From contig JBEQAY010000022.1 in assembly GCA_041640075.1 (NCBI GenBank), forward strand, positions 1 to 17,967: a DNA stretch of 17,967 nucleotides, written 5' to 3'. A program made the position numbers and the translations under genes. Each line of letters opens with the position of its first letter. Positions within the stretch are counted from its first letter, which is position 1. The stretch comes from Candidatus Nanohaloarchaea archaeon. Lineage in GTDB: Archaea; Nanohalarchaeota; Nanosalinia; Nanosalinales; Nanosalinaceae. The notes beneath the pieces are model-generated. The model ran no database searches. It was not told the DNA's origin and saw only the letters and a list, made by a program, of their open reading frames with translations. Shown piece after piece: positions 1-17,457 of the stretch.

Positions 1-27
1 TTTCTGTATTGGGATAGACCATCCGAC

Positions 28-33
28 TTTTAA
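28..33 (+). promoter_or_regulatory. Putative TATA box of the SRP RNA gene
   Basis: TTTTAA about 25 nt upstream of the predicted RNA 5' end (57), the usual archaeal spacing. Confidence 0.5.
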
Positions 34-56
34 CTGTTCCAGCAGATTTTGTTTTT

Positions 57-324
57 GGGTAGGCTGGGCGGTTCGGGGCCGCTTGTAACCTTGAAATCCT
101 CGTTATGCAGGGGGCTGAAAACCGTTGGGAGGTGTCTCTTTCAATGGTTCGGCCCATGGGACGGTTGTTTGACGATCCGTCCTCCGGGATGTCGCAGGCT
201 GTGAACCGGGTCAGGCCCTGACGGGTGCAGCCCTAAGCAGTCAGTGGCATGTTCGGAGGGTGGCGGATCCGAGGCCGTGCCGTGGATTTACCGGCCGTTG
301 AAGGGCATCGACCTTCGGGAACCC
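57..324 (+). ncRNA. ffs: Signal recognition particle RNA (7S-type, about 268 nt, lacking helix 6)
   Basis: Terminal helix GGGT(57-60)/ACCC(321-324). Alu domain: helix 3 GGGCGG(66-71)/CCGCTT(79-84), UGUNR motif TGTAA(84-88), helix 4 CCTTG(89-93)/CAGGG(108-112), loop-loop complementarity CGGGG(74-78)/CCTCG(98-102). Long paired rod 131-201/238-309. Helix 8 GGG-TCAGG-CCC-TGAC-GGG-TGCAG-CCC (208-233) matches the SRP54-binding motif. Followed by a T-tract. Confidence 0.95.
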
Positions 325-328
325 GCTG

Positions 329-339
329 TTTTTGATTTT
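329..339 (+). terminator. T-rich archaeal terminator after the SRP RNA
   Basis: TTTTTGATTTT just after the closing helix. Confidence 0.5.
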
Positions 340-397
340 GGCTTCCTGTGTTGTTCTTGGGAAAATTTCTTAAGTTTCTGTGTCTTTGTGTGACTTG

Positions 398-1162
398 ATG
401 ACTGGTTTATCTGATGGTGTTGTCTCTGAGGCCGTTGAGCTTTCGGAAGCGGTCTTCTCTGATGGCAGGGAAAGTTTTGAAGATAGTTACGATGGTGAAA
501 TCGATGATTACATGTTGATCCAGGATTTGAGGAACAGGATTGACGAGGCGATGATGGATACAGATGGAAAGATCCCGTATATGGATGATTTACCTTCTTT
601 CTCGGATCTTGGTCATGATGAGGATTCCTGGGCGCGTGTTTTCTACTCTCTGACGCCTGATACCTCCTACAGGGAGCTTGCGGATGTATCGGAGTTCTCC
701 GTTGATTCCATGAGTAATGTGATAGGAGGACTCAAAGACGAGGGACTTATCGAGGCTACAGGAACTACGAGGTCGAAAAAATATTTTTACGGTGAAAAAG
801 CTCTTCCGTATCTCATGCTGCTTTCCGAGGCAGAGATGATCCTGGAAGACGGAGAGGCTGATACTTTTTCCGGGGAAAGGAGTCAGGAAGTTGAACCTGA
901 GGTGGAACAGGAGCCGGACTTAGATGTAAATAGGTCTGATTCTGAAGTACCTGAGGAGGCAGAGGATTCTTCAGAACCTGTAGACGAAGAGGATGACAAG
1001 AGTCTGCGGGAGATTATGAAGGATGTTGCAGATGATGACGAAGACTTTAGGACGACTTTCAGTCGGAAGGAGGACGGCGGTATCGAGCAGAGGGATCACA
1101 CGGATACGGAGACCGATGAATCATCTAATCCTTCTGAAGATGAGTACTACGAGGGATGGTGA
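398..1162 (+). CDS. Acidic hypothetical protein with central winged helix-turn-helix domain and disordered acidic C-terminus
   Basis: SYRELADVSEFSVDSMSNVIGGLKDEGLIEATGTTRSKKYFY fits a wHTH pattern. ATG 398 is preferred to GTG 380 because TTCTTAAG lies about 25-30 nt upstream. Confidence 0.7.
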   Translation: MTGLSDGVVSEAVELSEAVFSDGRESFEDSYDGEIDDYMLIQDLRNRIDEAMMDTDGKIPYMDDLPSFSDLGHDEDSWARVFYSLTPDTSYRELADVSEFSVDSMSNVIGGLKDEGLIEATGTTRSKKYFYGEKALPYLMLLSEAEMILEDGEADTFSGERSQEVEPEVEQEPDLDVNRSDSEVPEEAEDSSEPVDEEDDKSLREIMKDVADDDEDFRTTFSRKEDGGIEQRDHTDTETDESSNPSEDEYYEGW

Positions 1163-1193
1163 AAAAGTTAAAACTCGCGGGTTATCGGTACTT

Positions 1194-1850
1194 GTGATAA
1201 AACTTTACGGGACTTCTCACGTCTCCCATGAGAGCTTGGATGTCATCGACGAAGCTTTCCTTGAGGAACCGGATCTGGTGGCTCTGGAACTTGATCCTCC
1301 GCGCCTCGAAGCCTTGATGTTCGATGGACAGGGCAGGAAAGACGGATCGATTTTCATACGTTTACTGGAGAAGTTCCAGAACTACGTCGGCAGTAAAACC
1401 GGTCTAATGCCGGGAGAGGAAATGCTGTATGCTTACAACCGGGCGATACAGGAGAACCTGGATATAGCGCTCATCGATCAGGACATCAGGATTACGGTAG
1501 AAAGATTGAAGCAGGTGAGACGGAAGGAAAAGGTCAAGGCAGTTTTTTCTGTGGGTTTAGGCCTGCTTCTACCTTTCGGCGATAAATTAAATATTGAAGA
1601 GATACCGGAGGAGGAAAAGATCCGGGAGCTTGTCTCCGAACTTGAAGATTCTTTCCCAGGTATTTATATGGTTTTGATGGAGGAGAGAAATAATCACATG
1701 TTTGAAAGTCTTGTCAGGCTTCAGGAGGAGAATCCTGATTCTGATATAGCTGTTTTCATGGGTGCAGCACACAGGAAACCGGTCGCGGAACTTCTGAGAG
1801 GTGAAGGGTTTGAGGTCAGTTGTGAAGATCTCCTGGAAGAAAAAAAGTGA
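1194..1850 (+). CDS. TraB/PrgY (pheromone shutdown/Tiki-like) family protein
   Basis: Motifs GTSHVS, VALELD, PGEEM, DQDIRIT, EERN, FMGAAH. Start moved to GTG 1194 to avoid a long overlap with the upstream gene. Confidence 0.85.
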   Translation: MIKLYGTSHVSHESLDVIDEAFLEEPDLVALELDPPRLEALMFDGQGRKDGSIFIRLLEKFQNYVGSKTGLMPGEEMLYAYNRAIQENLDIALIDQDIRITVERLKQVRRKEKVKAVFSVGLGLLLPFGDKLNIEEIPEEEKIRELVSELEDSFPGIYMVLMEERNNHMFESLVRLQEENPDSDIAVFMGAAHRKPVAELLRGEGFEVSCEDLLEEKK

Positions 1851-2559
1851 GGGCTGGAAAGCCGAACTGATGCTGGCGGAACCAGGCAGCTTCGAAAAAC
1901 TTGAGTTAAGTCCTGGCAGAAGCTTCTCATTTGAACTTGTAGACGAGAGAAGATGCACGGGTTACGCTCCTTCTCCTGGTGAAAGGGCGCCGTGCCCCGA
2001 TTTCAGAGAAATCTCCTCTGGTTCACAGTGTCCTGAATGCCGTGGAAAAGACATCTACTCCGGCTACGTACGTGGTGATGAACAGACTGATCTTGAGGGT
2101 GATTTCTCGGTCTATCTGGCACAGATCTCTGACAGCGTCAAGGTGGGGGTCACAAGGAGCGGGAAAATCCCGGAGCGGTGGATCGAACAGGGAGCGGACT
2201 TCGGCGTTGAGATTCTTCAGGGGCTTGAAGCGCGTGTCGCACTGGAAAACGAGTCAGATATCTCCTCGAACGGTTTGACCGAACGGGTAAGAAAAAACCA
2301 GAAAGTACCGGCAGCCCTGACCTCTGAACTACTTGAACAGAAGATGGAGGAACACGATTTTCAGGGAGAGATAATCAATGTACAGGATCTAACGGTTTAC
2401 GATGAGATGAAGACGAAAAGTTTCCGCCGCAAAGGACTTTTCGAGGGAGAACTTGAGTCAGTAAGAGGCCAGATAATATCCAACGGCAGGATGGCTCTGG
2501 CCATGACTTCCGGAAAAGTTTTGAAGAAGCCGGAGCAGAAGGGTTTGAACAGTTTCTAG
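1801..2559 (+). CDS. DUF2797 domain-containing protein
   Basis: Cys cluster CTGY..CP..QCPEC followed by VYLA..VKVGVTR..RWIEQGA. Exact start uncertain (1801/1810/1822). Confidence 0.8.
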   Translation: MKGLRSVVKISWKKKSEGWKAELMLAEPGSFEKLELSPGRSFSFELVDERRCTGYAPSPGERAPCPDFREISSGSQCPECRGKDIYSGYVRGDEQTDLEGDFSVYLAQISDSVKVGVTRSGKIPERWIEQGADFGVEILQGLEARVALENESDISSNGLTERVRKNQKVPAALTSELLEQKMEEHDFQGEIINVQDLTVYDEMKTKSFRRKGLFEGELESVRGQIISNGRMALAMTSGKVLKKPEQKGLNSF

Positions 2560-2610
2560 AAATTTCTGTTGAGGGTTAAAGTAATATTAAGAGGATTCTA
2601 TTTCCTGTTT

Positions 2611-3090
2611 ATGACTGATTTTGAAAGGGCGTTAGTTAACTCGTTCAATAGTTTCTTTGAGAGTGAAGAGATCGATGGTATTGCTCACAGGAAGAAGCAA
2701 CACCGTTTCAGTTCCCAGCTTTGCGATGTCTTGGTGGATTCTGAGCATGAGATGTTTTACCTGGCGATAGAGAACAAGAGTGTGAAAACTTCCAGTACGA
2801 ACAAGCTTTACTTTTCCCAGCATTTCTCCCAGAGTAAGGGCGGTCATCAGGTGGAAAGGATCAGCGATTTCGTCGACAGGTCAGGTAGAAGAGGTTTTCT
2901 TGCCGTAGAGCTGAAGCGTGGCCGTGGAAGAAGCAGGAAGGCGTACATGGTGCCCTGGAGTGCGGTAAGGGAGGCTTATGAGTCTGGTGAGGCTGGTCTG
3001 CATATCGATGAGATACAGGATTACCCGGAGATTTTACGGGATTCTGAGGATTACAGTGTTGCAGAGATGTGTGTCGGTATGGAGATTTAG
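2611..3090 (+). CDS. Holliday junction resolvase-like PD-(D/E)XK nuclease
   Basis: FER..VNSFN, QHRF..Q.CDVLVD, AIENKS, LYFSQHF, GRRGFLAVEL resemble a euryarchaeal Hjc/RecU-like family. ATG at 2611. Confidence 0.7.
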   Translation: MTDFERALVNSFNSFFESEEIDGIAHRKKQHRFSSQLCDVLVDSEHEMFYLAIENKSVKTSSTNKLYFSQHFSQSKGGHQVERISDFVDRSGRRGFLAVELKRGRGRSRKAYMVPWSAVREAYESGEAGLHIDEIQDYPEILRDSEDYSVAEMCVGMEI

Positions 3091-3127
3091 GAAGAGTTTT
3101 TTACTGTCCGACCCGTAACTAGGTTTT

Positions 3128-3754
3128 ATGGTAGAGCCGGGTCCTGGTATCAGCGGTTTTCCTGACAGAGAGGATGTCTACAATTTTGTACTGGGTACAG
3201 GTGTCCTGGCTGCTGCTTTCGCCGCGTTTTACGGCGAGTTTGAGGTAGGTGGTGCAGTATTTTATCTTTCAGCTTCTGCCACAGTACTTGCGACCAGGGA
3301 GTTTGGTGTAAGAGCTGCTGCCAATGTTCTTGATGGCTACGCCAGTCTTGAGGTTTCAAGCGAAGGATCGACAACTACGCTCTTCGGAGCCATCATCTCA
3401 GTCATCACAGGTCTTCCTGTTATACTGCTTTTCCCGATTTACTCGGAAGTTTCAAGGAAGAAATACGAGCAGTGGGGTCGTTCTATAGACGTTGTATGGG
3501 CTGCCTACAAGTTCAAGATCGCTCGCTGGGGTGTGGCAGCTCTACTTCTAGGTTTTGTCCTGGCAGGAAGCTTCGGTTTGGAGAAAATAGCTCAGATGTA
3601 TGCTCTGTTTGCTTTCTTCCAGATGCTGCCTTTCGATTACTCAGGCATCCCTACAGGACCTCTTGACGGGGCAGAGATTTTGCGCTGGAGCGGGTTCTGG
3701 TGGCTGCTGTTTACAGGAATCTCTCTGTTGATGATCGCTCTGACAGTTATCTAA
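3128..3754 (+). CDS. Integral membrane protein, peptidase M50 (site-2 protease)-like, probably inactive
   Basis: Several hydrophobic segments. C-terminal FFQMLPF..PLDGAEILRW resembles the M50 NxxP..LDG motif. The HExxH position reads REFGV. Confidence 0.65.
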   Translation: MVEPGPGISGFPDREDVYNFVLGTGVLAAAFAAFYGEFEVGGAVFYLSASATVLATREFGVRAAANVLDGYASLEVSSEGSTTTLFGAIISVITGLPVILLFPIYSEVSRKKYEQWGRSIDVVWAAYKFKIARWGVAALLLGFVLAGSFGLEKIAQMYALFAFFQMLPFDYSGIPTGPLDGAEILRWSGFWWLLFTGISLLMIALTVI

Positions 3755-3808
3755 CTCTAGAAAATCCTGGTTTTTTAGAAAAAGAAAGGGTATATTGGTC
3801 GGAGGAGA

Positions 3809-4030
3809 TTATTCTCTTAGGAGATCTTCTACAGGATCGTCTTCCTTTTCGTCGTCCACTGGACCGCCTATCGTTCCAGGTTCTTGGTCTGGAAGCTCGT
3901 CCTCGAAGGAGTCTTCATCGTTACGGATTTCCTCTGCTTCCCGCTCGATGCGTTCTCTCATTTCGTCTTCTCCAAGTTCCTCTTCCTCGTCGTCGAAATC
4001 GTCCGGTTCAAATTCGTTTGGTTCATCCAT
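3809..4030 (-). CDS. Small, extremely acidic hypothetical protein (73 aa)
   Basis: ATG preceded by a GGAGG ribosome-binding site (complement of 4041-4045). Acidic composition matches the other genes and the ORF fills the gap. Confidence 0.7.
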   Translation of the reverse strand: MDEPNEFEPDDFDDEEEELGEDEMRERIEREAEEIRNDEDSFEDELPDQEPGTIGGPVDDEKEDDPVEDLLRE

Positions 4031-4186
4031 GGTTTTCTGGCCTCCGCTAGGGTCTTGAATAAGTTTGACTCAACCGCATACTTTTAAAGGCTTTGACCGG
4101 TGTTTTGTTCTTCAGGTAGCAAAGTATATATTCGCCGGCATCGGGGTTAGGTTGGATTTATTACCGGCGGATACCATTGTTTTTAC

Positions 4187-5446
4187 ATGCCAAAAATTAT
4201 CGTAGGCAGAAGCGAGAGCGATAAGGAGGAGCATGGAATTGATGGAACAGGTGTGATAGGTAAACATCTGGTAGGAGAGGACGAGGAAGCCCATACAGCT
4301 AACCCTCTGCACTTTGACCTGGCAAAACCCCACGTCATTGGGGTATTCGGGAAGAGAGGAACCGGTAAATCTTACTCTATGGGAACTATTGTTGAGGAAC
4401 TGCAAACTGTCGACATTGCGGAAAATCTCTCCACGATAATGATCGACCCTATGGGAATTTTCTGGTCGATGAAAAGACCAAATGAGAGGGATGTTTCAAT
4501 ACTTGACAAATGGGGTATGAAGCCGGAGGCGTTCGACGCCCACGTATATATTCCAAAAGGCAAGACAAAGGATTTCGACGAGAAAGAGATGCCTTACGAC
4601 GATACTTTCATGCTTAACCCGGCTCAGCTTACCTCAGAGGAGTGGAGGATGGCGTTTGATATCGACGCCAACACCGAGATGAGTATTCTTCTTGAAAGGC
4701 TTGTAGAGGATCTTACTGAAGAGTTCGACGATAACTACAGGATAGAGCATATGAAGGAGGCTCTGGAGTCCTACGAGTTCGAGGAAAAGACAAAGAGAGG
4801 GCTTGAAAACAGGTTTGATAACGCAGAGGACTGGGGTATCTTCGGAGACACATCCTCAATCGACAAGTTGACGTCCGCCGGAGAGCTCTCAGTAGTCGAT
4901 GTATCGGTTTTCGGACAGTTATCCGGTGGAACCCGGGTACAGTCACTTGTGGTGGCTATCCTGGCTAAAAGGATTCTGCGCAGGAGGATGTCGGCCCGTA
5001 GACTCGAGGAACTTGACGAGATGCAGGGGCTGGATCGTGCCGACGAGCCTATCCAGTGGATGCTGATAGACGAGGCGCACGAGTACCTTCCTGCTGAAGG
5101 AGAGACGCCTGCCACTGATCCGCTTCTGAGATGGGTGAAGATCGGTAGAGAACCAGGTGTATCTCTTGTGCTCTGTACCCAGCAGCCGGCAAAACTTCAT
5201 CCAAATGCACTTTCTCAGATGGATCTTCTACTGGCGCATAGATTAACAGCCCAGCAGGATATCGACGCACTCCAGAAAATTATGCAGACCTATATGCGTT
5301 ATGACCTCAGACACTACATAGACGCTCTTCCAGACAGGCCAGGTACAGCTATGATCATGGACGACAACTCCGAAAGAGCTTACCCGGCACAGATGAGGCC
5401 GAGAAAGTCCTGGCACGCCGGAGGAACACCTGACGCATTTGACTGA
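4187..5446 (+). CDS. HerA/FtsK-superfamily P-loop ATPase (DUF87-type), soluble
   Basis: Walker A GKRGTGKS, IDPMG, Walker B LIDEAH, arginine-finger GREPG and TQQP motif. No obvious N-terminal HAS barrel. Confidence 0.85.
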   Translation: MPKIIVGRSESDKEEHGIDGTGVIGKHLVGEDEEAHTANPLHFDLAKPHVIGVFGKRGTGKSYSMGTIVEELQTVDIAENLSTIMIDPMGIFWSMKRPNERDVSILDKWGMKPEAFDAHVYIPKGKTKDFDEKEMPYDDTFMLNPAQLTSEEWRMAFDIDANTEMSILLERLVEDLTEEFDDNYRIEHMKEALESYEFEEKTKRGLENRFDNAEDWGIFGDTSSIDKLTSAGELSVVDVSVFGQLSGGTRVQSLVVAILAKRILRRRMSARRLEELDEMQGLDRADEPIQWMLIDEAHEYLPAEGETPATDPLLRWVKIGREPGVSLVLCTQQPAKLHPNALSQMDLLLAHRLTAQQDIDALQKIMQTYMRYDLRHYIDALPDRPGTAMIMDDNSERAYPAQMRPRKSWHAGGTPDAFD

Positions 5447-5451
5447 TAACT

Positions 5452-5973
5452 ATGGAAACCAAGGCACTCATAACCCAGGAAGTAGTTAACAAGACAGAAT
5501 ACTTCGCTAGAGTACCTCTGGACAACCAGGAGATGCTTCCCACATTGCTTCCATTAATGGCTGCAGCTATAATAATGGAGCTCTACTTCGGTAAACACAA
5601 AGAGGAAAGTCTTGGATGGAACACAAGCGTCGGAAACGCAGCCATCTGGATGACAACAGGGTTATCTATTCTTATTGTAGAGACAGGTCTGAGTCAGCTG
5701 GAACTGCAGGCGACATATGCCTTGATAGCTCTTGGAGGCTTTGTCACTTTTATGGACTTCTTCCATATATGGCCCTCTACAGTTGCATTTATAGTCTCAT
5801 CCTCAGCTATGGTCTATACACTTGCCTACACACTGGTAGTAATTATAAAATCCAGTATGCCGGTTAATCAGACAACTTTGAAGGCTGCAGCACTGTTTTT
5901 CATAGGTGTAAACCTTGCATTCAAGGTTATACAGTTCTTCGAGTCGGACGATGATTCAGCCATGAACTTCTGA
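5452..5973 (+). CDS. Hypothetical multi-pass membrane protein
   Basis: About 5 hydrophobic segments, with a loop ELYFGKHKEESLGWNTSVGNA. Starts 5 nt after the ATPase stop, so likely co-transcribed. Confidence 0.75.
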   Translation: METKALITQEVVNKTEYFARVPLDNQEMLPTLLPLMAAAIIMELYFGKHKEESLGWNTSVGNAAIWMTTGLSILIVETGLSQLELQATYALIALGGFVTFMDFFHIWPSTVAFIVSSSAMVYTLAYTLVVIIKSSMPVNQTTLKAAALFFIGVNLAFKVIQFFESDDDSAMNF

Positions 5974-6052
5974 AAAACTTTCGCTTTAATCTGTCCTAGG
6001 CTAGAGATTTTTTCGACTCTAATATAATTTCAGTTTCCAAAGCATCCTGTAG

Positions 6053-8248
6053 ATGGATCTTCTGAAAACAGATGAGATAGAGTCTCGTGCATACCAGGAA
6101 GTGATCGCTGCCTCTGCCTCAGACAGGAACACCCTGGTAGTACTTCCTACAGGACTTGGTAAAACAATAATCGCAGTTATGGTGGCATCCATCAAGATGC
6201 AGGACGACTCAAAAATCCTGATGATGGCGCCGACAAAGCCACTGGCCAGCCAGCACAAAAAAACATTCCAGAAATTCCTTAAAATCCCAGAAGACCAGCT
6301 ACAGGTCATGACAGGAGACACAAGGCCAGAAAAAAGATACAAACACTGGAAGAACAAGAAAGCGTTCTTCGCCACACCACAGGTAGTGGAAAACGATCTC
6401 ATCGCTGATGAAGTACCTGTAGAAGAGTTCTCACTTGTTATATTTGACGAAGCACACCGGGCGACAGGGGAGTACAGTTACGTATTCATCAATGAAAAGA
6501 TGGGTGTGCAGAACCTGGCTTTAACAGCTTCTCCAGGAGGTTCCAAAGAGAAGATCATGGAGGTGGCTGAAAACCTGGATATCGAAAACTTTGAGGTCCG
6601 TACAGAGGATGATCCGGACGTTGAGCCCTATATCGAGGATAAAGAGGTCAACTGGATCAACGTTGAACTTGACGAGAAGTTCATGGAAGCCAAGTCAAAG
6701 ATGGAGTCGGCTCAGAGAGAGCAGTTGAAGAAACTGAAGTCCATGGGGCAGATAAGCTCCACGAGCAACGTCAATAAGACGGATCTACTGAAGCTGAGAG
6801 GAGAGATATCATCCAAACTTTCAAAGACGGATGATCCCGAGCTTTACTCAGCTATCTCGCGTGTCGCAACTGCATTAAAGATCTCACAGGCAATCGAGAT
6901 GCTGGAAACACAGGGGGTCAGCCAGTGCTACGAATATCTTGAAGGACTCAAAAACGATGATTCAAAGGCTGCTGCCAGAGTTCTCCAGAACAACGACATG
7001 CAGAAAGCCATAAACCTAGTAAAATACCTGAAAAAAGAGGGGGAGGAGCATCCAAAACTTGACAGGACAGTCGAGATACTGGAGGACCTTGAAGACGATG
7101 GTAAAGCCCTAGTGTTCACGGAGTACCGTTCCTCTGTTGACAATATAACTGAAAGATTGAAGGAAGAAGGTATGGCTGCCAAGCGGTTTATAGGGCAGTC
7201 AGGAGATGGAGGGATGAGTCAGAAGGAACAAATAGAGCTGCTCGATGAATTCAGGGATGGTGACCACCAGGTCGTGGTCTCCACAAGCATAGGCGAAGAA
7301 GGACTGGATATACCGGCAGTAGACTACGTTGTATTCTATGAACCTGTGCCATCATCTATCAGAAGCATACAGAGAGCAGGTAGAACCGGCAGACAGGAAT
7401 CAGGAGAGGTCTACGTCCTTATAGCGGAGAACACACGTGACGAAGGATATTACTGGAGTGCACACCACAAGAAAAAGAACATGAACAAGGTACTTCAGGA
7501 ACTCAAAAACGAACAGATGGAGCGCGAACCTTCAGGACCTCAGAGATCTCTTAGTGGCTTCAAAGACGAGGAGGATTCAAAGGAATCTCAGGAAGACGAA
7601 CCAGAGGACGAGGAAGACCAGCTGGAAATCTATGTCGATGACAGGGAGAACGCAGTAGCGAAGGAACTCTCAAGGATGGACATCGTTGTAGACAAGCAGA
7701 GGATGGATGTAGCTGACTTCCTGGTATCTGAAGATACGGCTATAGAAAGAAAACAGGCAGAAGACTTCGTAGACTCTATACTTGACTCAAGACTTTTTGA
7801 CCAGCTAATAGAGATGCAGGACTACAGAAAACCTGTTTTGATCGTGGAAGGAAAAGAACTCTACTCCCACAGAGATGTCCATCCAAACGCGATAAGAGGT
7901 GCTCTTGCAACAGTAGCTATAGACTACGAGATCCCGATACTATGGAGTGACGGCAGGAAGGAAACAGCAGAGATGCTGAAGTCTCTGGCCAAAAGAGAAC
8001 AGGAGGAAAAGGAAAAAGACGTCGCTGTAAGAGCCAACAAGTCATCCAACACAGAGAAAGAACTGCAGAAATACATGGTTGCAGGTCTTCCTGGCGTAAA
8101 CACCAAGATAGCTGAAAGGATGCTCAAAGAGTTCGGAAGCGTGGAATCAACTTACACAGCCTCTTTTGAGGATCTTAAAGAAATCGAGGGTATCGGCGAC
8201 AAAAAAGCTGCAAGAATAAGAGAACTGCTTGAAAAAGACTATAACTAA
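6053..8248 (+). CDS. hef: Hef: FANCM/ERCC4-like DEAH helicase-nuclease
   Basis: RAYQ, LPTGLGKT, DEAH, TASPG, EEGLD, QRAGRTGR helicase motifs, then an acidic linker, ERCC4 nuclease domain (VDDRE, DFLV, ERK..DF..S) and C-terminal (HhH)2 (LPGVN, IEGIGDKKA). Confidence 0.95.
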   Translation: MDLLKTDEIESRAYQEVIAASASDRNTLVVLPTGLGKTIIAVMVASIKMQDDSKILMMAPTKPLASQHKKTFQKFLKIPEDQLQVMTGDTRPEKRYKHWKNKKAFFATPQVVENDLIADEVPVEEFSLVIFDEAHRATGEYSYVFINEKMGVQNLALTASPGGSKEKIMEVAENLDIENFEVRTEDDPDVEPYIEDKEVNWINVELDEKFMEAKSKMESAQREQLKKLKSMGQISSTSNVNKTDLLKLRGEISSKLSKTDDPELYSAISRVATALKISQAIEMLETQGVSQCYEYLEGLKNDDSKAAARVLQNNDMQKAINLVKYLKKEGEEHPKLDRTVEILEDLEDDGKALVFTEYRSSVDNITERLKEEGMAAKRFIGQSGDGGMSQKEQIELLDEFRDGDHQVVVSTSIGEEGLDIPAVDYVVFYEPVPSSIRSIQRAGRTGRQESGEVYVLIAENTRDEGYYWSAHHKKKNMNKVLQELKNEQMEREPSGPQRSLSGFKDEEDSKESQEDEPEDEEDQLEIYVDDRENAVAKELSRMDIVVDKQRMDVADFLVSEDTAIERKQAEDFVDSILDSRLFDQLIEMQDYRKPVLIVEGKELYSHRDVHPNAIRGALATVAIDYEIPILWSDGRKETAEMLKSLAKREQEEKEKDVAVRANKSSNTEKELQKYMVAGLPGVNTKIAERMLKEFGSVESTYTASFEDLKEIEGIGDKKAARIRELLEKDYN

Positions 8249-8249
8249 G

Positions 8250-9245
8250 ATGAAACCACTGATCGCAGGTGTAGACCCAGGCAGCACTTCTGCAGTAGCT
8301 CTCATAGACTTTGAAGGAGAAATTGTGAAGCTGGAGAGCGGTAAAAACTTTCCGCCCAGCGAGATAATAACTGAGATAGTTGCAGAAGGTAAGCCAGTGG
8401 TTGTTACCTCAGATAAAGCCGATACACCGTCAAAGGTTGAGAAAATTGCGACATCGGTCGGTGCTGAACAGTTTGAACCTGAAGAAGATCTATCGAAGAA
8501 AAGGAAGAGAGAACTTGGTGAAGGAGAAAACTCACATGAGCGAGACGCATCTGCAGCAGCTATACATGCATATAAACAGCTGAGAGATAATATAAAGAAG
8601 ATTAAAGAGGTAGCTGAAGAAGAGGACATGGAAACGGTTGATGTAGCTGAGAGATACTTCACATCAGGTAAGGAACTCGTACCCGAAGATCCGGAGGAAG
8701 GGAAAGAAGATGAACCTGAGAGCAAAGAGTACACCCATTTCCGCAAGAAATCTGAAAAGATGGAGGAAAAAGTAGAGGAGCTTGAAAAGAAAATAGAGGA
8801 GCTTGAGGAGAAACTTGAGTTCAAGGAACAGCAGAGGCGCGACCTCCAGAGTAAATACGACAGGCTTAAATCAGATAAGACCGAGGAACTGCTGAAAGAG
8901 GAAGAGATCGAAAGCAGAGAGAAGAAACTAAGCGAAAAGCAGGAGAAAATCTCCCAGCTACAGGACAAGTTAAAGAAGTCCAATATACGGGAGAAACAGT
9001 ACCAGAAAGCTATAGAAGAACTTGAAAAAGGAGCCGAAATAGTGCCTCTAGTTGAAGAAAAAGCGCCAGGAACTGAACCTTTCGTCACCCGTTCCAAGAG
9101 TTTCAGAGACAGGATGAGGTCGAAAGGCAGGAAAGTATACTATATAGACGAAGTTGAAGGTGTGGAACTCGGAGACAGGTTTATCCTCAGTAATATCAAT
9201 GAGGACGTGAAAGATATCATCGAGAGGTACCGCGACTCAAGATGA
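8250..9245 (+). CDS. DUF460 domain protein (RNase H-like N-terminus plus long coiled coil)
   Basis: IAGVDPGSTSAVALID, GKPVVVTSD, HERDA.AAA followed by an E/K-rich coiled coil. ATG 8250 directly follows the hef stop. Confidence 0.8.
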   Translation: MKPLIAGVDPGSTSAVALIDFEGEIVKLESGKNFPPSEIITEIVAEGKPVVVTSDKADTPSKVEKIATSVGAEQFEPEEDLSKKRKRELGEGENSHERDASAAAIHAYKQLRDNIKKIKEVAEEEDMETVDVAERYFTSGKELVPEDPEEGKEDEPESKEYTHFRKKSEKMEEKVEELEKKIEELEEKLEFKEQQRRDLQSKYDRLKSDKTEELLKEEEIESREKKLSEKQEKISQLQDKLKKSNIREKQYQKAIEELEKGAEIVPLVEEKAPGTEPFVTRSKSFRDRMRSKGRKVYYIDEVEGVELGDRFILSNINEDVKDIIERYRDSR

Positions 9246-9766
9246 AACAGAAGATTCTCAACATGTTTCCCGACACCGATGATTTGGATGAACGACAGGA
9301 GAAGGTGCTGGAGGCAAATATTTTCCTGGGAAAGATGCTTCTGATCGGAGGTATATTCCATTCAATCCTCTGGATCTACCCGGATACCTCCTGGATACAG
9401 GCACGTTACGCAGAGTTCATCGCGGGTATCATGAACCAGCTGGGTTATACCTTCCGCGCTGAATCAGTCTATATTCTTCCAGGATATGAGATAACGCAGG
9501 ACTGCCTTGGCTGGAAATCCATAATGGCCTTCACAGCACTCGTCGTATCATCTACCACTAAAATAAGAGAGAATTTGAAGTACATTTTCGCAGGGATCGC
9601 GGCCATAATGCTGGCGAACGTTGTCAGGATAGTGACCACTATACATCTTAGTGAAATCGGTCTGATAAGTTTCGAGGTAATCCACGGCTTCCTCTGGAAA
9701 TGGAGTCTTACAGCACTTGTCCTTGTGGCCTGGATCTACTGGTTCACACGCTACAGGGATCAGTAA
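9242..9766 (+). CDS. Archaeosortase/exosortase family transpeptidase
   Basis: Membrane protein with ITQDCLGWKS (Cys), NVVRI (Arg) and IHGFLW (His). ATGA overlap with the DUF460 gene. Confidence 0.85.
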   Translation: MKQKILNMFPDTDDLDERQEKVLEANIFLGKMLLIGGIFHSILWIYPDTSWIQARYAEFIAGIMNQLGYTFRAESVYILPGYEITQDCLGWKSIMAFTALVVSSTTKIRENLKYIFAGIAAIMLANVVRIVTTIHLSEIGLISFEVIHGFLWKWSLTALVLVAWIYWFTRYRDQ

Positions 9767-10575
9767 AAAGCGTATAGCAGCCAGATACCTGAAGCCGTCA
9801 AGTCAGTAAGTAGAACCGCCAGGAGAAATACAGGGATGAATGGTACGCCTGTCCGGACCTCTAGATCACCTGAAACTTCTTCGACCTCTTCCTCTTTAAG
9901 TCCTCTGATCTTGTTGCCGAATCCCTGGTCAGGCGAAGGAACATCTCCTTCTTCAACTTCTTCAGATGATTTAACTGCTACCATGTACTCCTCCTCAACT
10001 AGTTGAAGGAATTCGTAGAGAAAAGTGAAGGCTAGGACTAATGTGAAGAATATTAGGCCGTTTGAGCCCTGTGAATTAAGTAAAAATCCTACGGCACCAC
10101 CAAGCACTAAGATTAGCGATATAGTTTTCTCATCTTCCTTGAAAGCGTTGAAAAGTGTTTTCAGGTCTCCGCCCTGCTCTAGGAACTTGTAAATCGAGTA
10201 GATTAATGTCACAGTGATTGCTGCTATCATGAAGTTGGCGATGAGATCCAGTAGGTAGGTCATATTGAATGCTCCGGATGTAGGTCCAGGTGTCATGAAT
10301 CCTAGTGCGGAGAGCATCATGGCGTCTGCTCCTCCCCACATACCTTTCCAGTAGGCGATCCAGCCGTAAGCAGAGAAAACTGCTCCGGCTCCCAGACACC
10401 AGAGAAGTGGTTCCAGTGACGAGGTCTGGAATGCGTAACCAGCGTGAAGCAGTATGCCGCCGGCTATTCCTACCAGGCCCGGTAAATCAGGGACGTCGTG
10501 ATTGTTGAAGATGTCGAACCATGAGCTAACTGAAAGAACTGCAAGTGCCAGCATATGTGAGAAAAAGAGCAGCAT
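9760..10575 (-). CDS. Prepilin/preflagellin peptidase (A24, PibD/FlaK-like)
   Basis: SWFD..DVPD (first Asp), MWGGADA (GxGD-type second Asp), C-terminal GVPFIP. Start moved to ATG 10575 to avoid overlap with the divergent gene. Confidence 0.88.
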   Translation of the reverse strand: MLLFFSHMLALAVLSVSSWFDIFNNHDVPDLPGLVGIAGGILLHAGYAFQTSSLEPLLWCLGAGAVFSAYGWIAYWKGMWGGADAMMLSALGFMTPGPTSGAFNMTYLLDLIANFMIAAITVTLIYSIYKFLEQGGDLKTLFNAFKEDEKTISLILVLGGAVGFLLNSQGSNGLIFFTLVLAFTFLYEFLQLVEEEYMVAVKSSEEVEEGDVPSPDQGFGNKIRGLKEEEVEEVSGDLEVRTGVPFIPVFLLAVLLTDLTASGIWLLYAFY

Positions 10576-10614
10576 ACAGTACACTTTAAACCCAGAAGAG
10601 CATAAAAAGTAAAC

Positions 10615-11253
10615 GTGGAACGCATCGAAGAACTTGTCAACGATCCCGGCAACCACGCCGTACTGAAGGAGCTAGCTACTCGTGAAGAAGAGGAGCTACA
10701 GGAACTCGCACAGGTGACGGGTTTAACAGAGGAGAGATTGAAGGACAAGACTCAGCGACTGGAAGAGGAAAACCTGATCACGGCTGAGAGAAAACAGGTT
10801 CCAACAGTTCTAAGGATACACAGAGAAAACCTGAATGATCTGAGAGATGAGATCAAAGGATTCCATGAGGACAGGCATGAACAGATAGAAGGGAAACTTC
10901 AGGAGGAAGAAAAAACTCTTGAAGACGCAAGACAGCAGCTTGAAGAGAAAAAAGATGATACAAGTTCGCTTAAGAAAGAAAAAAAGTTTGAACGGCAGAT
11001 TGAAACTTTAGAATCAGCGATTGAAGCATGCAGGCAGGCTGAAACCTCTGAAGAATTACTGGGGGCGTACTCTCTTTCTCACCGTGTGTTGAGGTTTACA
11101 GATTTCAGGGAAGAGGATTTTCACGGTTTTAACCCGTGGAGGAAGTTGAAGGCTTCCAGGAAGCTTGATGAAGTTCTGGAACAGAGGCCTGAGGAAGAGG
11201 AGACCAGAAGATTCTTCGGCAACAGATGGGTAAAGGAGTCCCGGATTGAGTAA
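10615..11253 (+). CDS. Winged-HTH protein (ArsR/MarR-like N-terminus) with coiled coil
   Basis: DPGNHAVLKEL..LQELAQVTGLTEERLKDKTQRLEEENLI pattern, followed by a heptad-rich E/K segment. Confidence 0.65.
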   Translation: MERIEELVNDPGNHAVLKELATREEEELQELAQVTGLTEERLKDKTQRLEEENLITAERKQVPTVLRIHRENLNDLRDEIKGFHEDRHEQIEGKLQEEEKTLEDARQQLEEKKDDTSSLKKEKKFERQIETLESAIEACRQAETSEELLGAYSLSHRVLRFTDFREEDFHGFNPWRKLKASRKLDEVLEQRPEEEETRRFFGNRWVKESRIE

Positions 11254-11267
11254 GACAGCAGGTTGAG

Positions 11268-11275
11268 TTTAAAAA
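11268..11275 (+). promoter_or_regulatory. Putative TATA box for rplX-pfdA-ftsY
   Basis: TTTAAAAA about 25 nt upstream of ATG 11298. Confidence 0.5.
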
Positions 11276-11297
11276 GTTCAGACCCTCGGCTTGTGAT

Positions 11298-11474
11298 ATG
11301 ACAGAATTCAGATTCTCAGGAGTACTGGATGTGGGTATGGATAAAACACCTTTCGAGAGAACGGTTGAAGCAGAGACAGAGAAGCACGCAGAAGACAAGG
11401 TTTACTCACAGCTAGGAAGCGAGCACTCAGTTACACGCGGTAAAATCAAGATAGATGAAAGTGAAGAACTTTAG
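11298..11474 (+). CDS. rpl18a: 50S ribosomal protein eL20 (LX/L18Ae), 58 aa; not in the ORF track
   Basis: Manual translation MTEFRFSGVLDVGMDKTPFERTVEAETEKHAEDKVYSQLGSEHSVTRGKIKIDESEEL shows the F...VEA....A...VYS.LGS.H...R..I.I signature. It lies in the conserved position upstream of pfdA-ftsY. Confidence 0.92.
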   Translation: MTEFRFSGVLDVGMDKTPFERTVEAETEKHAEDKVYSQLGSEHSVTRGKIKIDESEEL

Positions 11475-11483
11475 GTGAATACT

Positions 11484-11885
11484 ATGGATCAAGAAATGAT
11501 GCAGGAATACCAGCAGCTCCAGCAACAGATGGAGGAGATGGAGGAACAGCTAACACAGATAAAAGAAAGAGTGCAGGAAATACAGGGTGCAGTAAAGGGC
11601 ATCCAAGATCTTGAGGACGCTGAGGAAGGCTCTGAAGTACTGGCACCAATCGGTGGCGGAGCTTTCGCAGTAGCAGAACTGAAAAGCAGCGAAAAAGTAG
11701 TCACAAACGTTGGAGGGGACTCCTACGAGAAACGAGATCTGGACTCCGCAGAGCAACTTCTACAGGATCAGCAAGATCAGCTTGAGGAAACTGAGGAACG
11801 ACTTGAGGAAGATATGGAAGAGATGCAGCAGCAGCTTCAGCAGATCCAGATGCAGCTTCAGCAGCAACAGCAAGGCGAACAGTGA
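11484..11885 (+). CDS. pfdA: Prefoldin alpha subunit
   Basis: Two coiled coils flanking EVLAPIGGGAF..A.L....KVVTNVG...Y.E. AGGTGA SD at 11473-11478. Synteny with rplX and ftsY. Confidence 0.93.
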   Translation: MDQEMMQEYQQLQQQMEEMEEQLTQIKERVQEIQGAVKGIQDLEDAEEGSEVLAPIGGGAFAVAELKSSEKVVTNVGGDSYEKRDLDSAEQLLQDQQDQLEETEERLEEDMEEMQQQLQQIQMQLQQQQQGEQ

Positions 11886-12769
11886 TGCTTGGAGACCTCA
11901 AGGACTCCGTCAAAGAATTTTCTTCGAACGTGAAGTCCGCAGTAGCGGAGAAAGAGCTTGAGGAATCCGACATAGATCCACTTCTGGAAGAGTTCAGACT
12001 CAAACTTCTGAAAAACAATGTCTCTCTGGAAGTTGCAGAAGAGATAGAAGATGAGCTGAGGGAAAAACTTGTAGGTAAAGAGGTTGGACGCACCGACGTG
12101 GATGAAACAGTTGAAGAAGCGTTCAAGGAGAAATTAATTGAACTTCTGGACGACAGCTTTGATCTTGAAGCAGAACTTAAGGAGGCAGAGAAACCTCCTG
12201 TTGTTTTCCTTATCGGTTTCAATGGCTCTGGAAAGACAACGACTGCTGCAAAACTTGCAAACCAGTACAAGGATCAGGGAGTTGTACTGGGCGCAGGAGA
12301 CACGTTCAGAGCAGCCTCCATCGAACAGCTCCAGGAGCACGGCGAAAACCTGGATGTGAAGGTCGTTACACATGAATACGAGTCAGATCCAGCAGCAGTC
12401 GGATACGACACCGTTGAGCACGCCAAGAAAAACGATAAGATCGCGATAGTGGACACAGCAGGAAGATCTCACTCCGACGATAACCTAATGGACGAACTCC
12501 AGAAGATGGTTGAAGTAAATAATCCAGACGTCAGCTTCCTGGTAGTGGATGCTCTTGCTGGAAACGACGTTCTTGAGCAGGCAGATGCCTACGAGGGGAT
12601 GTTTGACGCGATAGTTGTGACCAAGATGGATGTGGACGAGAAAGGTGGTGCAATAATCTCATTGAGCCACAGAAGTGGAAAACCTGTCGCTTTCATCGGT
12701 ACAGGACAGGATTACGGTGACATAAAGGAGTTTGACAAGGAAGAATTCGTCAAAGGAATTCTGGAATAA
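11885..12769 (+). CDS. ftsY: SRP receptor FtsY (NG domains only)
   Basis: GFNGSGKTTTAAKLA, GDTFRAAS.EQL, DPAAV, DTAGR, TKMD..KGG, GTGQ. TGATG coupling with pfdA. Confidence 0.96.
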   Translation: MLGDLKDSVKEFSSNVKSAVAEKELEESDIDPLLEEFRLKLLKNNVSLEVAEEIEDELREKLVGKEVGRTDVDETVEEAFKEKLIELLDDSFDLEAELKEAEKPPVVFLIGFNGSGKTTTAAKLANQYKDQGVVLGAGDTFRAASIEQLQEHGENLDVKVVTHEYESDPAAVGYDTVEHAKKNDKIAIVDTAGRSHSDDNLMDELQKMVEVNNPDVSFLVVDALAGNDVLEQADAYEGMFDAIVVTKMDVDEKGGAIISLSHRSGKPVAFIGTGQDYGDIKEFDKEEFVKGILE

Positions 12770-12826
12770 CGGCATCTTCTTCAACTGCCTCTAGGAAATT
12801 TCTTTAAGTCAGGAAAGTACTATAAA

Positions 12827-13156
12827 CTAGAGATATGCTTTCTGATCTTCCATTCTCTCTTTCATGGATTTCTCAAGTTCTTCAAGCTTGGATTTCAGCG
12901 GCTCCATGTCATCGTCGAAGTCGCTCATCTTGACCTGCTTACCCTCGCTACGTTCCTGGATTCTCTCTTTTCGCATCACTGTCAGTAGGTGGTTGACTTC
13001 AGCTACAAGCTGTTCGTACTGCTTCAGTTCAGCCTCTATGTAGGAGATTTCCTCACCAAGTTCCTCTCGGAGCTCTTCCGTTACCTCCTGTTTCATCTGC
13101 TGTTTGTCAACGCCGAACTTCCTGCGTACAGTCCTGTAAAATTTCTCCATTCCCAT
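12827..13156 (-). CDS. Hypothetical coiled-coil protein
   Basis: 109-aa E/K-rich helical ORF filling the gap. No family recognised. Confidence 0.7.
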   Translation of the reverse strand: MGMEKFYRTVRRKFGVDKQQMKQEVTEELREELGEEISYIEAELKQYEQLVAEVNHLLTVMRKERIQERSEGKQVKMSDFDDDMEPLKSKLEELEKSMKERMEDQKAYL

Positions 13157-13207
13157 AACCAGTCAACCTGTATCTACCAATGAATCATAAAATCTTATAA
13201 GAGTTTT

Positions 13208-13798
13208 TCAGGATGCTTCTTCCGGATCTGGAATCTTCTCAGTCTCACCTTCACGAGGATCCTTCTCAATATCTTCTTCCTTCTTCTCACGGATAGGCTC
13301 CGGAATGGAAGCCGAGAGGTCACGTACCTGATTCTCCTGGAAGAAACGGGCTGTCACAGCACCAAGCGCTGCATCGAACTCCGCAGCTGAATCGATATCA
13401 GAGGGATCGACACCGTAGCCTTCAAACGCATCATCGGAGTCGATCGCCAGCTCCCTACCGGAGATGACAGGGTCAAACCTGATATACTCTGGTAGCTCGT
13501 CACCTGATAGCTCCTGAGCAAGATGCGCTTTAAACGACTGAAAACGCCTTACACGCTTCACATCATCTTTTGCGGGCGTGAAGATAAATCCTTCCTCCTG
13601 GAGCTCTTCTTCACCATCACTGAGCCTTCTTCTCTCCTCAAGACCTGTATTAACTGCTATTATACCGGGTTTCCTCTCCTTTACAAGTTCAACTATCTCC
13701 TTGTTCGAGTCAACTGTGAATGATTCAATTTCATCTGAAAGAAAAGCTACAGAGCTTTCATCCTTCTCTGTCTCCCCGAATACAATTCCACATAACAT
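13208..13798 (-). CDS. DUF429-like (predicted RNase H-fold) protein, degenerate active site
   Basis: Pattern MLCGIVFG..K..S.VAFL..EIVEL....KP.IIAVNTGL..FDAALGAVTA..F resembles DUF429/COG2410. Confidence 0.55.
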   Translation of the reverse strand: MLCGIVFGETEKDESSVAFLSDEIESFTVDSNKEIVELVKERKPGIIAVNTGLEERRRLSDGEEELQEEGFIFTPAKDDVKRVRRFQSFKAHLAQELSGDELPEYIRFDPVISGRELAIDSDDAFEGYGVDPSDIDSAAEFDAALGAVTARFFQENQVRDLSASIPEPIREKKEEDIEKDPREGETEKIPDPEEAS

Positions 13799-13803
13799 AG
13801 TAT

Positions 13804-14685
13804 CTATACCTTTACCTTCTTCGCTTCCTTACGAAATTTTTCCTTTGACTCATCCTCTCCGGGTTCTTCCCTGTCCTCGCTGTCACCTTCTTCTTTCTCG
13901 AACTCCATCAAAGACCTGTTCTTCTGCTTTATCTCCATAAACTTCTCGGTCTCTGCACGATCCTTTACGATACCGATGAAGTCGATCAAAGCCTTGTTGA
14001 AGTCCTGAGGCTTTTCAAAAAAGCTGAAACTACCTGCAGCATCAAGCTTGCTCAGCGATGCATTCGGCTCAAGCTCCCTCGCAAAATCAAGATCCGAAAA
14101 CCTGTCGTCGCCGGCGTGGATCACAAGAGACTGCTTGGACGGCCGTGAAACCTTGTAGCCTTCCAGGAAACTTTTGAAATCCGAGTAATCCGGTTTCTCC
14201 AGTGTCTGCATGAAATCCTTAACCACGCTGTACTTCGTGTCGTCTGAGAAAAATATTTTCTTCGCAATCTTCGGCTTGAAACTGCCGATCCTGTAAAACC
14301 AGTCCAAGACTTTCCTCGGCGGCATCTTCTCAAACTTTCTGCGTGGACCAGTCAGGACTGTCGAGATGACGTCATCCCGATCCTCAAACTCCTGTACAAG
14401 ACTGTTTCCAAAAGTGTTGGATACAAGTATCACGTTATCCAGGTGATCCTGGTTCAAAACGTTTTCAAGTGCAGATCTCTCCCCTGAAAGATCTCTGAAA
14501 CTTACTGTGGGCTTGAAACTGATCGTACGGAATCTCTTGGAGAAGTAACGGATCTGTTGCTTCCACAGCTCCGGGTTCAGGCCGCCAGGTACAAATACAA
14601 GCTGTACCGACGACTCCTTCTCTGACTCATAATAATGAAGGTTCTCTTCGCCCACTCTTCTCAAAGAAAACTGCACTGCATCCAC
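13804..14685 (-). CDS. Alpha/beta hydrolase-fold protein, probably non-catalytic, with charged C-terminal tail
   Basis: LVFVPGG...W..QI.YFS..FR, LVSNTFG, LVIHAGDD, AGSFSFFEKPQDFNKAL. GAGGTGA SD favours GTG 14685. Confidence 0.8.
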   Translation of the reverse strand: MDAVQFSLRRVGEENLHYYESEKESSVQLVFVPGGLNPELWKQQIRYFSKRFRTISFKPTVSFRDLSGERSALENVLNQDHLDNVILVSNTFGNSLVQEFEDRDDVISTVLTGPRRKFEKMPPRKVLDWFYRIGSFKPKIAKKIFFSDDTKYSVVKDFMQTLEKPDYSDFKSFLEGYKVSRPSKQSLVIHAGDDRFSDLDFARELEPNASLSKLDAAGSFSFFEKPQDFNKALIDFIGIVKDRAETEKFMEIKQKNRSLMEFEKEEGDSEDREEPGEDESKEKFRKEAKKVKV

Positions 14686-14741
14686 TAATATCACCTCTAA
14701 AGCTTTTATCCATTGACTTCAATTGAAACCTTAAGAACACA

Positions 14742-15095: not shown

Positions 15096-15134
15096 AATCA
15101 AACCATTTTAACATTACAGTCCGAAACCGGAAAC

Positions 15135-16427
15135 ATGTTTGACAAAATAAAGGATTCAATAGAAAAATTCTCCTCAAGGAACGTCGCCGACAAGGAAGCC
15201 GTCAAGGAACTTGTCAAAGACATCCAGAGAGACCTGATAAGAGCAGACGTCGACGTCGCGCTCGTATCAGACCTCACAGATGAGATAAAGGAAGAAGCAC
15301 TGAAAGAAGACCTTCCATCAGGACTTTCACGCAAAGAACACGTCCTGAAAATAGTATACGACAAACTGGAAGAACTACTGGGAGAAGAAGCAGAGATAGA
15401 AATAGAGCCAAAAAACGTTCTTCTCTGCGGGCTCTACGGAGCAGGAAAAACAACTACAGCCGGAAAACTGGCTGACTTCTACCGTAAAAGAGGCATGAAA
15501 GTCGGATTAATCGCAGCCGACACAGACAGGCCGGCAGCATACGAACAGCTCCAGCAGATCGCGGAAGAAGTCGACGCAGAGTTCTACGGCGACCCTGACG
15601 CAGAAGATCCGGTGGAGGTAGTAGAAGAAGGGATGGAGAAAATTGAGGCGGACGTAAAAATTGTTGACTCGGCAGGAAGAGACTCTCTCAACGACAGACT
15701 GAAGAAACAGCTCTCCGACATGTCCGAAGCATTCCGGCCGGAGGAAAAATACCTTGTCATCCCTGCAGACATCGGTCAGTCAGCCCGTGAACAGGCAGAA
15801 ATGTTCCATGAATCAGTAGGAATTACAGGAGTAATTGTAACAAAGATGGACTCTTCAGCTAAAGGAGGAGGAGCACTTGTAGCTTGTGCCGACTCCGACG
15901 CAAAGGTCAAGTTCATCGGTACAGGAGAAAAGATGGGAGACCTGGAAGAGTACGATCCTGTAGACTTTGTCTCCGACATGATAGGCCAGCCAGACCTTGA
16001 AAGCCTGCTGGAAAAGATCGAGGAGATGGATACCGATCCGGAAGCAATTCTTGAAGGAGACTTCACGATGAAGGACTTCAAGGAGCAGATAGAATCCGTG
16101 ACGCAGGCCGGAGTAATGGAGGAGATGATGCAGCAGCTTCCTTTCTCCTCGAACAAACTTCCGGACAACATGCAGGATATGACGGAGGGAAAGATAGAGA
16201 ACTACACGGTTATGATGGATTCTATGACTGATGAAGAGATGAAAGACCCTACGATAATCAAGGAATCCCGTAGAGAAAGGATTGCAAAGGGATCAGGTAC
16301 AGAGAAAGGAGAGGTCGCCGAACTGGTCAAGCACTACAAACAGACCAAGAACATGGTGAACAAGTTCGACAAGAAATCCATGAAACGCGGAAACATGAAA
16401 GACATGATGAGCAAGATGGGTCTCTAA
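15135..16427 (+). CDS. srp54: Signal recognition particle protein SRP54/Ffh
   Basis: ADVDV, GLYGAGKTTTAGKLA, DTDRPAAYEQL, DSAGR, TKMDSSAKGGGAL, GTGEK. M domain with DSMTDEE..P..I..SRRERIAKGSG and a Met-rich tail. Confidence 0.97.
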   Translation: MFDKIKDSIEKFSSRNVADKEAVKELVKDIQRDLIRADVDVALVSDLTDEIKEEALKEDLPSGLSRKEHVLKIVYDKLEELLGEEAEIEIEPKNVLLCGLYGAGKTTTAGKLADFYRKRGMKVGLIAADTDRPAAYEQLQQIAEEVDAEFYGDPDAEDPVEVVEEGMEKIEADVKIVDSAGRDSLNDRLKKQLSDMSEAFRPEEKYLVIPADIGQSAREQAEMFHESVGITGVIVTKMDSSAKGGGALVACADSDAKVKFIGTGEKMGDLEEYDPVDFVSDMIGQPDLESLLEKIEEMDTDPEAILEGDFTMKDFKEQIESVTQAGVMEEMMQQLPFSSNKLPDNMQDMTEGKIENYTVMMDSMTDEEMKDPTIIKESRRERIAKGSGTEKGEVAELVKHYKQTKNMVNKFDKKSMKRGNMKDMMSKMGL

Positions 16428-16449
16428 AAAGTCCTTTAAAATTTTTAAT

Positions 16450-16797: not shown

Positions 16798-16908
16798 AAC
16801 TTTCCACGCTTCTCGAAAACAGTTTTTCCCTCACAGCTCCCCAGCCCATCAGTAAAAACTATTCACGTACTCCTTGAATATAAGTCTTTCATACACTACA
16901 AGGTACAT

Positions 16909-17445: not shown

Positions 17446-17457
17446 ATCTAATATGAA

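Follow-up and report, generated by a model that had tools for sequence, protein, structure and literature searches.

A helix-6-less SRP RNA with a UGAC-tipped helix 8 in Nanohaloarchaeota and two loop states among its relatives

Introduction

What becomes of the tip of helix 8 in an archaeal SRP RNA that has no helix 6? Canonical archaea, like eukaryotes, pair the adenine at the fourth position of the helix-8 loop with an adenine of helix 6 (PMC4605306, PMC4615810). A review from 2010, covering 81 archaeal RNAs, gave the helix-8 loop as GRRA and considered the A-A clamp likely to be universal (PMC2905702).

The question is raised by a stretch of 17,967 nucleotides (hereafter the window; contig JBEQAY010000022.1, positions 1 to 17,967 of the forward strand) from assembly GCA_041640075.1 of a Candidatus Nanohaloarchaea archaeon. 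An earlier note, made from the sequence alone, had drawn attention to a UGAC loop and an altered symmetric loop in helix 8 of an SRP RNA encoded near the start of the window, and had attributed the change to the loss of helix 6, which it took to have relaxed the constraint on the loop.

Results

The SRP RNA gene at the start of the window (Table 1) is of archaeal type. Its match to the Rfam model Archaea_SRP (RF01857) is full length, spanning model positions 1-317 with 110.3 bits (E 1.1e-24; gathering threshold 96.5), and its fold has a z of -3.2. The bacterial large SRP RNA model (RF01854) matched positions 57-324 at 97.6 bits, above its cut-off and below the RF01857 score. In the Rfam alignment, the Alu domain has helices 3 and 4 and the UGUNR motif described in PMC2905702, the features by which an archaeal SRP RNA is recognized. 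Helix 6 is missing, as the earlier note had said, with 38 RF01857 model positions deleted. The two most similar RNAs among 120 pattern-scan records came from records titled Ca. Nanohalobium and Ca. Nanohaloarchaea.

Table 1. Features of the SRP RNA gene and of its putative protein partners in the window.
Feature	Position	Strand	Evidence
TATA-like box TTTTAA, about 30 nt 5' of the RNA; putative promoter element	28..33	+	sequence
Gene for an archaeal-type SRP RNA lacking helix 6	52..329 (structured core about 58-324)	+	RF01857, RF01854, fold z
UGUNR motif (UGUAA), Alu domain	84..88	+	sequence and Rfam alignment
Direct junction of helix 5 with helix 8, at the site of the missing helix 6	194..195	+	38 model positions against 0 bases
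Helix 8: asymmetric loop 203-207 and 234-236, stem 208-211/230-233	203..236	+	fold of 197-243, Rfam alignment
Symmetric loop CAGG (212-215)/UGCA (226-229): A213·C228 and G214·G227 intact, G215·U226 for G·A	212..229	+	sequence, fold, comparison of 223 RNAs; invariant pairs after PMC4605306
Apical loop UGAC, closing pair C218-G223	219..222	+	sequence, contigs
T-rich run 3' of the gene; putative terminator	329..339	+	sequence only
ftsY, SRP receptor, NG domain only	11882..12769	+	Pfam SRP54 and SRP54_N; best PDB match 3dm9 (SRP receptor)
SRP54 with M domain	15135..16427	+	Pfam SRP54, SRP_SPB; alignment to solved archaeal M domains

A TATA-like box comparable to that of the window was present 31-34 nt upstream in 10 of 12 relatives (the script parsed 12 of 42 loci). 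A scan for sigma-70 promoters and bacterial-type terminators found nothing, its models being bacterial and unsuited to archaea. The genome, about 1 Mb in size and 89% complete, gave a single SRP RNA match in the Rfam search. A second, canonical copy of the RNA was considered and rejected, as none was found by the RNA search or by a search of this 89%-complete genome for further copies of positions 208-233 with up to 4 mismatches. The expressed ncRNAs of another nanohaloarchaeon include an SRP RNA, without comment on its helix-8 or helix-6 features in the accessible part of that paper (PMC10266531).

The SRP RNA, ftsY and SRP54 genes lie on the same strand within 16.4 kb. The SRP RNA is directly followed by an open reading frame for a very acidic protein of 260 aa without a Pfam match (380-1162), and a second frame of 173 aa (2569-3090) likewise has no Pfam match. 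Positions 6053-8248 encode a fusion of helicase and ERCC4 nuclease, which we take to be Hef-like. Aspartate and glutamate together make up 18-23% of four window proteins.

Helix 8 reads GGG-U-CAGG-CCC-UGAC-GGG-UGCA-G-CCC over positions 208-233, with U at 226. The sequence is thus as the earlier note had given it, including the URRC type of the loop. The helix-8 pattern matched once in the window and in none of 200 shuffles. ViennaRNA pairs G215·U226 as a wobble that adds one pair to the apical stem, with a folding energy for 197-243 of -20.8 compared with -18.5 kcal/mol. In E. coli 4.5S RNA, G49 and A60 stand at the equivalent sites (counted from the gene sequence), so that G·U here replaces G·A, as the earlier note had claimed.

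The earlier note had asked whether the bases at 219-226 might be sequencing errors. A contig from run X1, at a depth of 311.8, spans 196-700 and shows no difference to the window (X1 is possibly the window's own source); a contig from run X2, which belongs to a separate study, spans 174-273 at a depth of 39.7, again without a difference. The best run came from a hypersaline lake. Further contigs of the two runs carry A at 226, like the relatives. Because contigs of two studies agree with the window over 219-226, neither UGAC nor U226 is an assembly error at the contig level, and both are confirmed as genuine.

The loss of helix 6 was accompanied by a consistent failure to detect SRP19 (PF01922). 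Matches numbered zero in the window's genome at E values up to 10, and zero in the 68 genomes of its phylum searched, of which 28 have a completeness of 90% or more. SRP19 was also undetected in all genomes searched from three other phyla, represented by G074 (record titled Woesearchaeota; 0 of 121), G081 (titled Micrarchaeota; 0 of 23) and G088 (0 of 30). The search recovered three of four archaeal controls and missed that of Sulfolobus, so a divergent SRP19 could escape it.

We then compared the loop among relatives. Seventy genomes of the window's phylum were searched for SRP RNA, and 60 gave a match, including all 28 that were near-complete. The helix-8 loop was UGAC in 50, UGGC in seven and UGAU in three; the UGRY loop is therefore phylum-wide, common to every relative examined. 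None of the 38 SRP RNA copies of relatives that were aligned has a helix 6. Helix 5 diverged strongly among relatives, while 60 of 60 RNAs held UGRY. In nine of the 60 genomes with a match, the score fell below the Rfam archaeal cut-off. In two relatives, a pair of near-identical SRP RNA copies appears on one contig, 16 kb apart on G003:C7 (L028/L031) and 2.7 kb apart on G016:C3 (L034/L035); these may be real duplications or artefacts of assembly.

Helix-6-less RNAs of the three other phyla showed a different balance. SRP RNA matches were obtained in 114 of 121 genomes of the G074 phylum (111 examined, three not fetched), in 24 of 24 of the G081 phylum and in 31 of 31 of the G088 phylum (30 examined). 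The loops were GGAA (87), UGAC (16), GGGA (5) and UGAU (1), with two unparsed, in the first; GGAA (13), UGAC (5), GGGA (3), UGGC (2) and UGAU (1) in the second; and GGAA (28), GAAA (1) and UGAC (1) in the third. Of the 163 RNAs parsed from these three phyla, all without helix 6, 137 therefore kept GNRA and 26 had URRY. All RNAs sampled here lack helix 6, and the 81 archaeal RNAs of PMC2905702 served as the helix-6-bearing baseline.

RNA lengths in these three phyla were 264-282 nt, except in two fragmentary genomes and in three longer RNAs, whose extra length is an intron-like insert inside helix 8 and not a helix 6. The three (L330, G130:C4:27822-28130; L331, G103:C97:6229-6548; L333, G175:C4:17056-17369) all have UGAC and fall together in one supported FtsY clade. 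Other helix-8 variants were seen at L220, L232, L245, L260, L261, L287, L301 and L341, with U or G as the first base of CAGG in seven RNAs and a six-base loop in one. Six records titled Methanosarcinales (L089, L097, L121, L163, L171 and L193) carry helix-6-less, DPANN-like SRP RNAs, and the titles are probably wrong; the four genomes with this title that were searched measure 0.8-1.5 Mb and are without SRP19.

Taken over the four phyla, 223 of 225 examined RNAs could be parsed, leaving out L301 (GGAA by eye) and L341 (6-nt loop). The first and fourth loop bases were G..A in 137, U..C in 81 and U..U in five; neither G..C nor U..A occurred. Loop state was then mapped on a quick IQ-TREE phylogeny of FtsY from 73 genomes, comprising 31 with GNRA (a non-random choice), 28 with URRY and 14 of the window's phylum. 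It required 14 changes, six of them forced by branches with SH-aLRT of at least 95, compared with a mean of 23.9 when states were shuffled; the tree is unrooted and from a single gene, and does not give the direction of the switches. Over the RNAs compared, the loop thus occupies one of two states, G..A or U..Y, between which it switched at least six times on this tree, a pattern unlike drift. The relaxed constraint proposed in the earlier note does not fit UGRY in 60 of 60 RNAs of the phylum, nor the occurrence of two states only over 223 RNAs.

The pair that closes the loop differed between the states. It was Watson-Crick in 127 of 137 GNRA tips and in 30 of 86 URRY tips, counts in which kin are not independent; among the URRY tips, 47 of 86 had G·U and nine a mismatch, and the window has C-G (218/223). 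The scarcity of Watson-Crick closure in URRY tips implies that the two kinds of tip are not fully equivalent, and many URRY tips may in fact form loops of six bases, for example UUGAUC.

The change at 226 followed a different course. In the window's phylum, the pair at 215/226 was G·A in 54 RNAs, A·A in five and G·U in one, the window itself; over all 223 RNAs, the counts were G·A 183, A·A 35, G·U 4 and A·U 1. Apart from the window, U stood at the equivalent of 226 in four RNAs, all of which had GNRA loops. The invariant pairs of the symmetric loop that SRP54 reads are A·C and G·G (PMC4605306); the window retains both, as A213·C228 and G214·G227, and U226 lies outside them. No compensation for U226 was seen by eye when the window's SRP54 was compared with those of five of nine fetched relatives. 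We read U226 as a separate, recent and likely near-neutral change, a peripheral G·A turned to a G·U wobble. It is private to the window's genome (1 of 60), likely harmless and, on our reading, unconnected with the loop swap. The earlier note had bundled it with the loop, against which stands its occurrence in one genome of the phylum and, elsewhere, only with GNRA loops.

Both protein partners encoded in the window have intact RNA-binding and GTPase motifs, and the SMT and RxRIAxGSG stretches of the SRP54 M domain are intact. The window's FtsY lacks an N-terminal A domain. When residues were mapped from E. coli FtsY, the basic patch of the window's protein proved to keep Lys399, with Glu in place of Arg402 and Pro in place of Lys406. 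The Lys399 equivalent was lysine in all 100 proteins compared (41 of 41 in the phylum, 28 of 28 in other URRY genomes and 31 of 31 in GNRA genomes). The Arg402 equivalent was basic in 31 of 31 GNRA genomes, 26 of 28 other URRY genomes and 23 of 41 genomes of the window's phylum; it was acidic in 18 of these 41, compared with none of the 31 GNRA genomes. The Lys399 and Lys406 equivalents were the same in GNRA and URRY genomes, and hence gave no sign of compensation in FtsY for the loop.

Discussion

We consider it moderately probable that the helix-8 tip of this helix-6-less SRP RNA has taken up a second allowed, shape-preserving loop state, permitted by the loss of helix 6 and SRP19, with a tether to FtsY that we infer for archaea. 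That the helix-8 loop contacts helix 6 in archaea and eukaryotes, as the earlier note stated, agrees with the fourth-adenine pairing of canonical archaea (PMC4605306). With C as its fourth base, the UGAC loop could not form this clamp, and since the clamp adenine is replaced, a tie to the loss of helix 6 is plausible. Following the loss of helix 6 and SRP19, the tip would have been allowed a second loop state: the fourth base would be free to become C, provided that the first base changed with it, from G·A to U·C. The exchange of G-R-R-A for U-G-R-Y likely preserves the shape of the tip and its role in recruiting FtsY; SRP54 would be the only protein on helix 8, which is the bacterial arrangement, and FtsY would still be tethered through the backbone of the tip. 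This upholds the link between loop and helix 6 in part, as a plausible permission and not a relaxed constraint. Retention of GNRA in most helix-6-less RNAs of other phyla (137 of 163) implies that the loss of helix 6 was at most permissive, and not a driver.

The paired change has a possible structural basis. UNAC loops can take the form of a U-turn variant with a 1-4 U·C pair and a GNRA-like backbone (PMC5311481), and a 1-4 U·C trans sugar/Hoogsteen pair would explain the covariation between G..A and U..C. In E. coli, the SRP loop tethers the FtsY basic patch (K399, R402, K406) electrostatically, and mutating the loop costs 20- to 200-fold in activity, about 20-fold even with GUAA; in mammalian SRP the tetraloop tether is unused (PMC6781444). 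The weakness of GUAA in E. coli means that a GNRA-like backbone may not suffice.

Alternatively, the swap from G..A to U..C could be independent of helix 6 and allowed in any SRP RNA, its frequency in DPANN archaea reflecting long branches and drift, an explanation that we judge unlikely. SRP19 is dispensable in Haloferax (PMC2905702), and MK-D1, an Asgard archaeon, has SRP19 (PMC11417166), both of which are in its favour. The loss of helix 6 is common to all four sampled phyla, probably by descent, so the association with the loop may rest on one event. Against such independence, all 81 RNAs of PMC2905702 are described as having GRRA with the A-A clamp, and the clamp is made by the adenine in fourth position (PMC4605306), which URRY does not have. 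When metagenome contigs were scanned for URRY loops with helix-6 spacing, one of the two matches was a small SRP RNA of bacterial type and the other had no counterpart in Rfam, so that no URRY loop beside a retained helix 6 emerged; the scan had no positive control and required an unaltered symmetric loop.

Two further possibilities invoke salt. The tip might have two states that lineages cross only by a paired change, with U..C fixed in Nanohaloarchaeota because it recruits FtsY differently at molar salt; the phylum would then have an SRP with a single protein, as bacteria do, and a receptor contact of its own. This seems to us quite unlikely. Very unlikely, in our estimate, is that the UGRY tip is itself a molar-salt adaptation of Nanohaloarchaeota, in which another contact replaces a screened electrostatic tether. 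Fixation in 60 of 60 RNAs of the phylum compared with 26 of 163 elsewhere would be consistent with such an adaptation, as would the acidic Arg402 equivalents (18 of 41 compared with 0 of 31 in GNRA genomes) and the hypersaline source of the best run. However, records titled Woesearchaeota, Pacearchaeota and Planctomycetota carry this loop too, acidic residues are a proteome-wide feature (as in the four window proteins), one ancestral event is enough for fixation, and the Lys399 equivalent is unchanged.

The version put forward in the earlier note, in which the loop was freed of constraint after the loss of helix 6 and then drifted, is largely refuted already, and we give it little credence. 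The weak closing pairs of many URRY tips (G·U in 47 and a mismatch in nine of 86), the variable 215/226 pair and the acidic Arg402 equivalents in 18 of 41 genomes of the phylum are what drift might leave behind. Against this reading, UGRY is held in 60 of 60 RNAs despite a highly divergent helix 5, the G..C or U..A ends expected from single changes occur in none of 223, and GNRA is kept by 137 of the 163 RNAs without helix 6 from other phyla.

Transfer of a bacterial large (Bacillus-type) SRP RNA, which would have brought the absence of helix 6 and the URRC loop together, appears highly improbable. The RNA does exceed the RF01854 cut-off with 97.6 bits, and two Planctomycetota records share the CCU-UGAC-GGG tip, but RF01857 scores higher (110.3 bits), the best five local alignments among 120 pattern matches are to archaeal records, the helix-6-less archaeal form is present in four phyla with either loop, and FtsY and SRP54 are closest to archaeal structures. 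An error of sequencing or assembly at 219-226, of which U226 might be a sign in that no other of the phylum's 60 genomes has it, is negligible given a loop type common to all relatives and matching contigs from two studies (depths 311.8 and 39.7), which refute it as far as contigs show.

The RNA remains close to known systems. Like the canonical archaeal 7S RNA of Methanocaldococcus jannaschii and Archaeoglobus fulgidus, it has a full RF01857 match, a UGUNR Alu domain and a long helix 5, and it shares with canonical archaeal SRP a helix 8 with the invariant A·C and G·G pairs, together with archaeal SRP54 and FtsY. It differs in having no GNAR-loop helix 6 and no SRP19 that could be found, in carrying UGAC for GRRA with the clamp adenine gone, and in G·U for G·A at 215/226. 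With bacterial large SRP RNA (RF01854) it has in common an Alu domain and helix 8 without helix 6, a length of about 270 nt and presumably a single protein partner; unlike that RNA, it is archaeal in sequence type and partners, and in its FtsY the E. coli basic patch is reduced to the Lys399 equivalent. By its sequence, UGAC also fits the UNAC pattern of 'USH-turn' tetraloops (D'Ascenzo et al. 2017, PMC5311481, citing Zhao et al. 2012), whereas the UGGC and UGAU loops of the phylum are not UNAC and the closing pair of URRY tips is often weak. In the NMR work of Zhao and colleagues from 2012, UGAC is reported to be a poorer GNRA mimic than UAAC or UCAC.

URRC is called a widespread alternative SRP loop of bacteria in PMC4091067, which bears out the earlier note's reference to bacterial URRC loops. 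Among the first 60 bacterial records listed by our pattern scan, 56 had GGAA and one UGAC. Of the records L131, L197, L102 and L342, those titled Planctomycetota have the CCU-UGAC-GGG tip of many nanohaloarchaea, whose place is taken by UAAC in one titled Anammoximicrobium and in a small SRP RNA from a metagenome. Judged by eye, about half of 23 pattern matches in IMG/VR (L063-L085) resemble SRP RNAs of bacteria with GNRA loops, some of them lying on contigs of 290-500 kb, and none of the 23 matches of this viral-contig scan is a URRY SRP RNA. No report of a URRC loop or of helix-6 loss in archaea was found in the open-access literature searched.

The RNA described here is a known RNA with an unusual tip. 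It shows no new mechanism; the URRC loop was already known in bacteria, and U226 matters little. For annotation, the Rfam archaeal cut-off misses nine of the 60 genomes with an SRP RNA match. For the whole phylum, our results overturn the statements in the accessible part of the 2010 review (PMC2905702) that helix 8 of archaea has GRRA and that the clamp between helices 6 and 8 is likely present in all archaea. The repeated switching between G..A and U..C without mixed forms sets close relatives with different tips side by side, and with such natural pairs it could be tested whether the tip acts through its shape or its sequence in recruiting the receptor.
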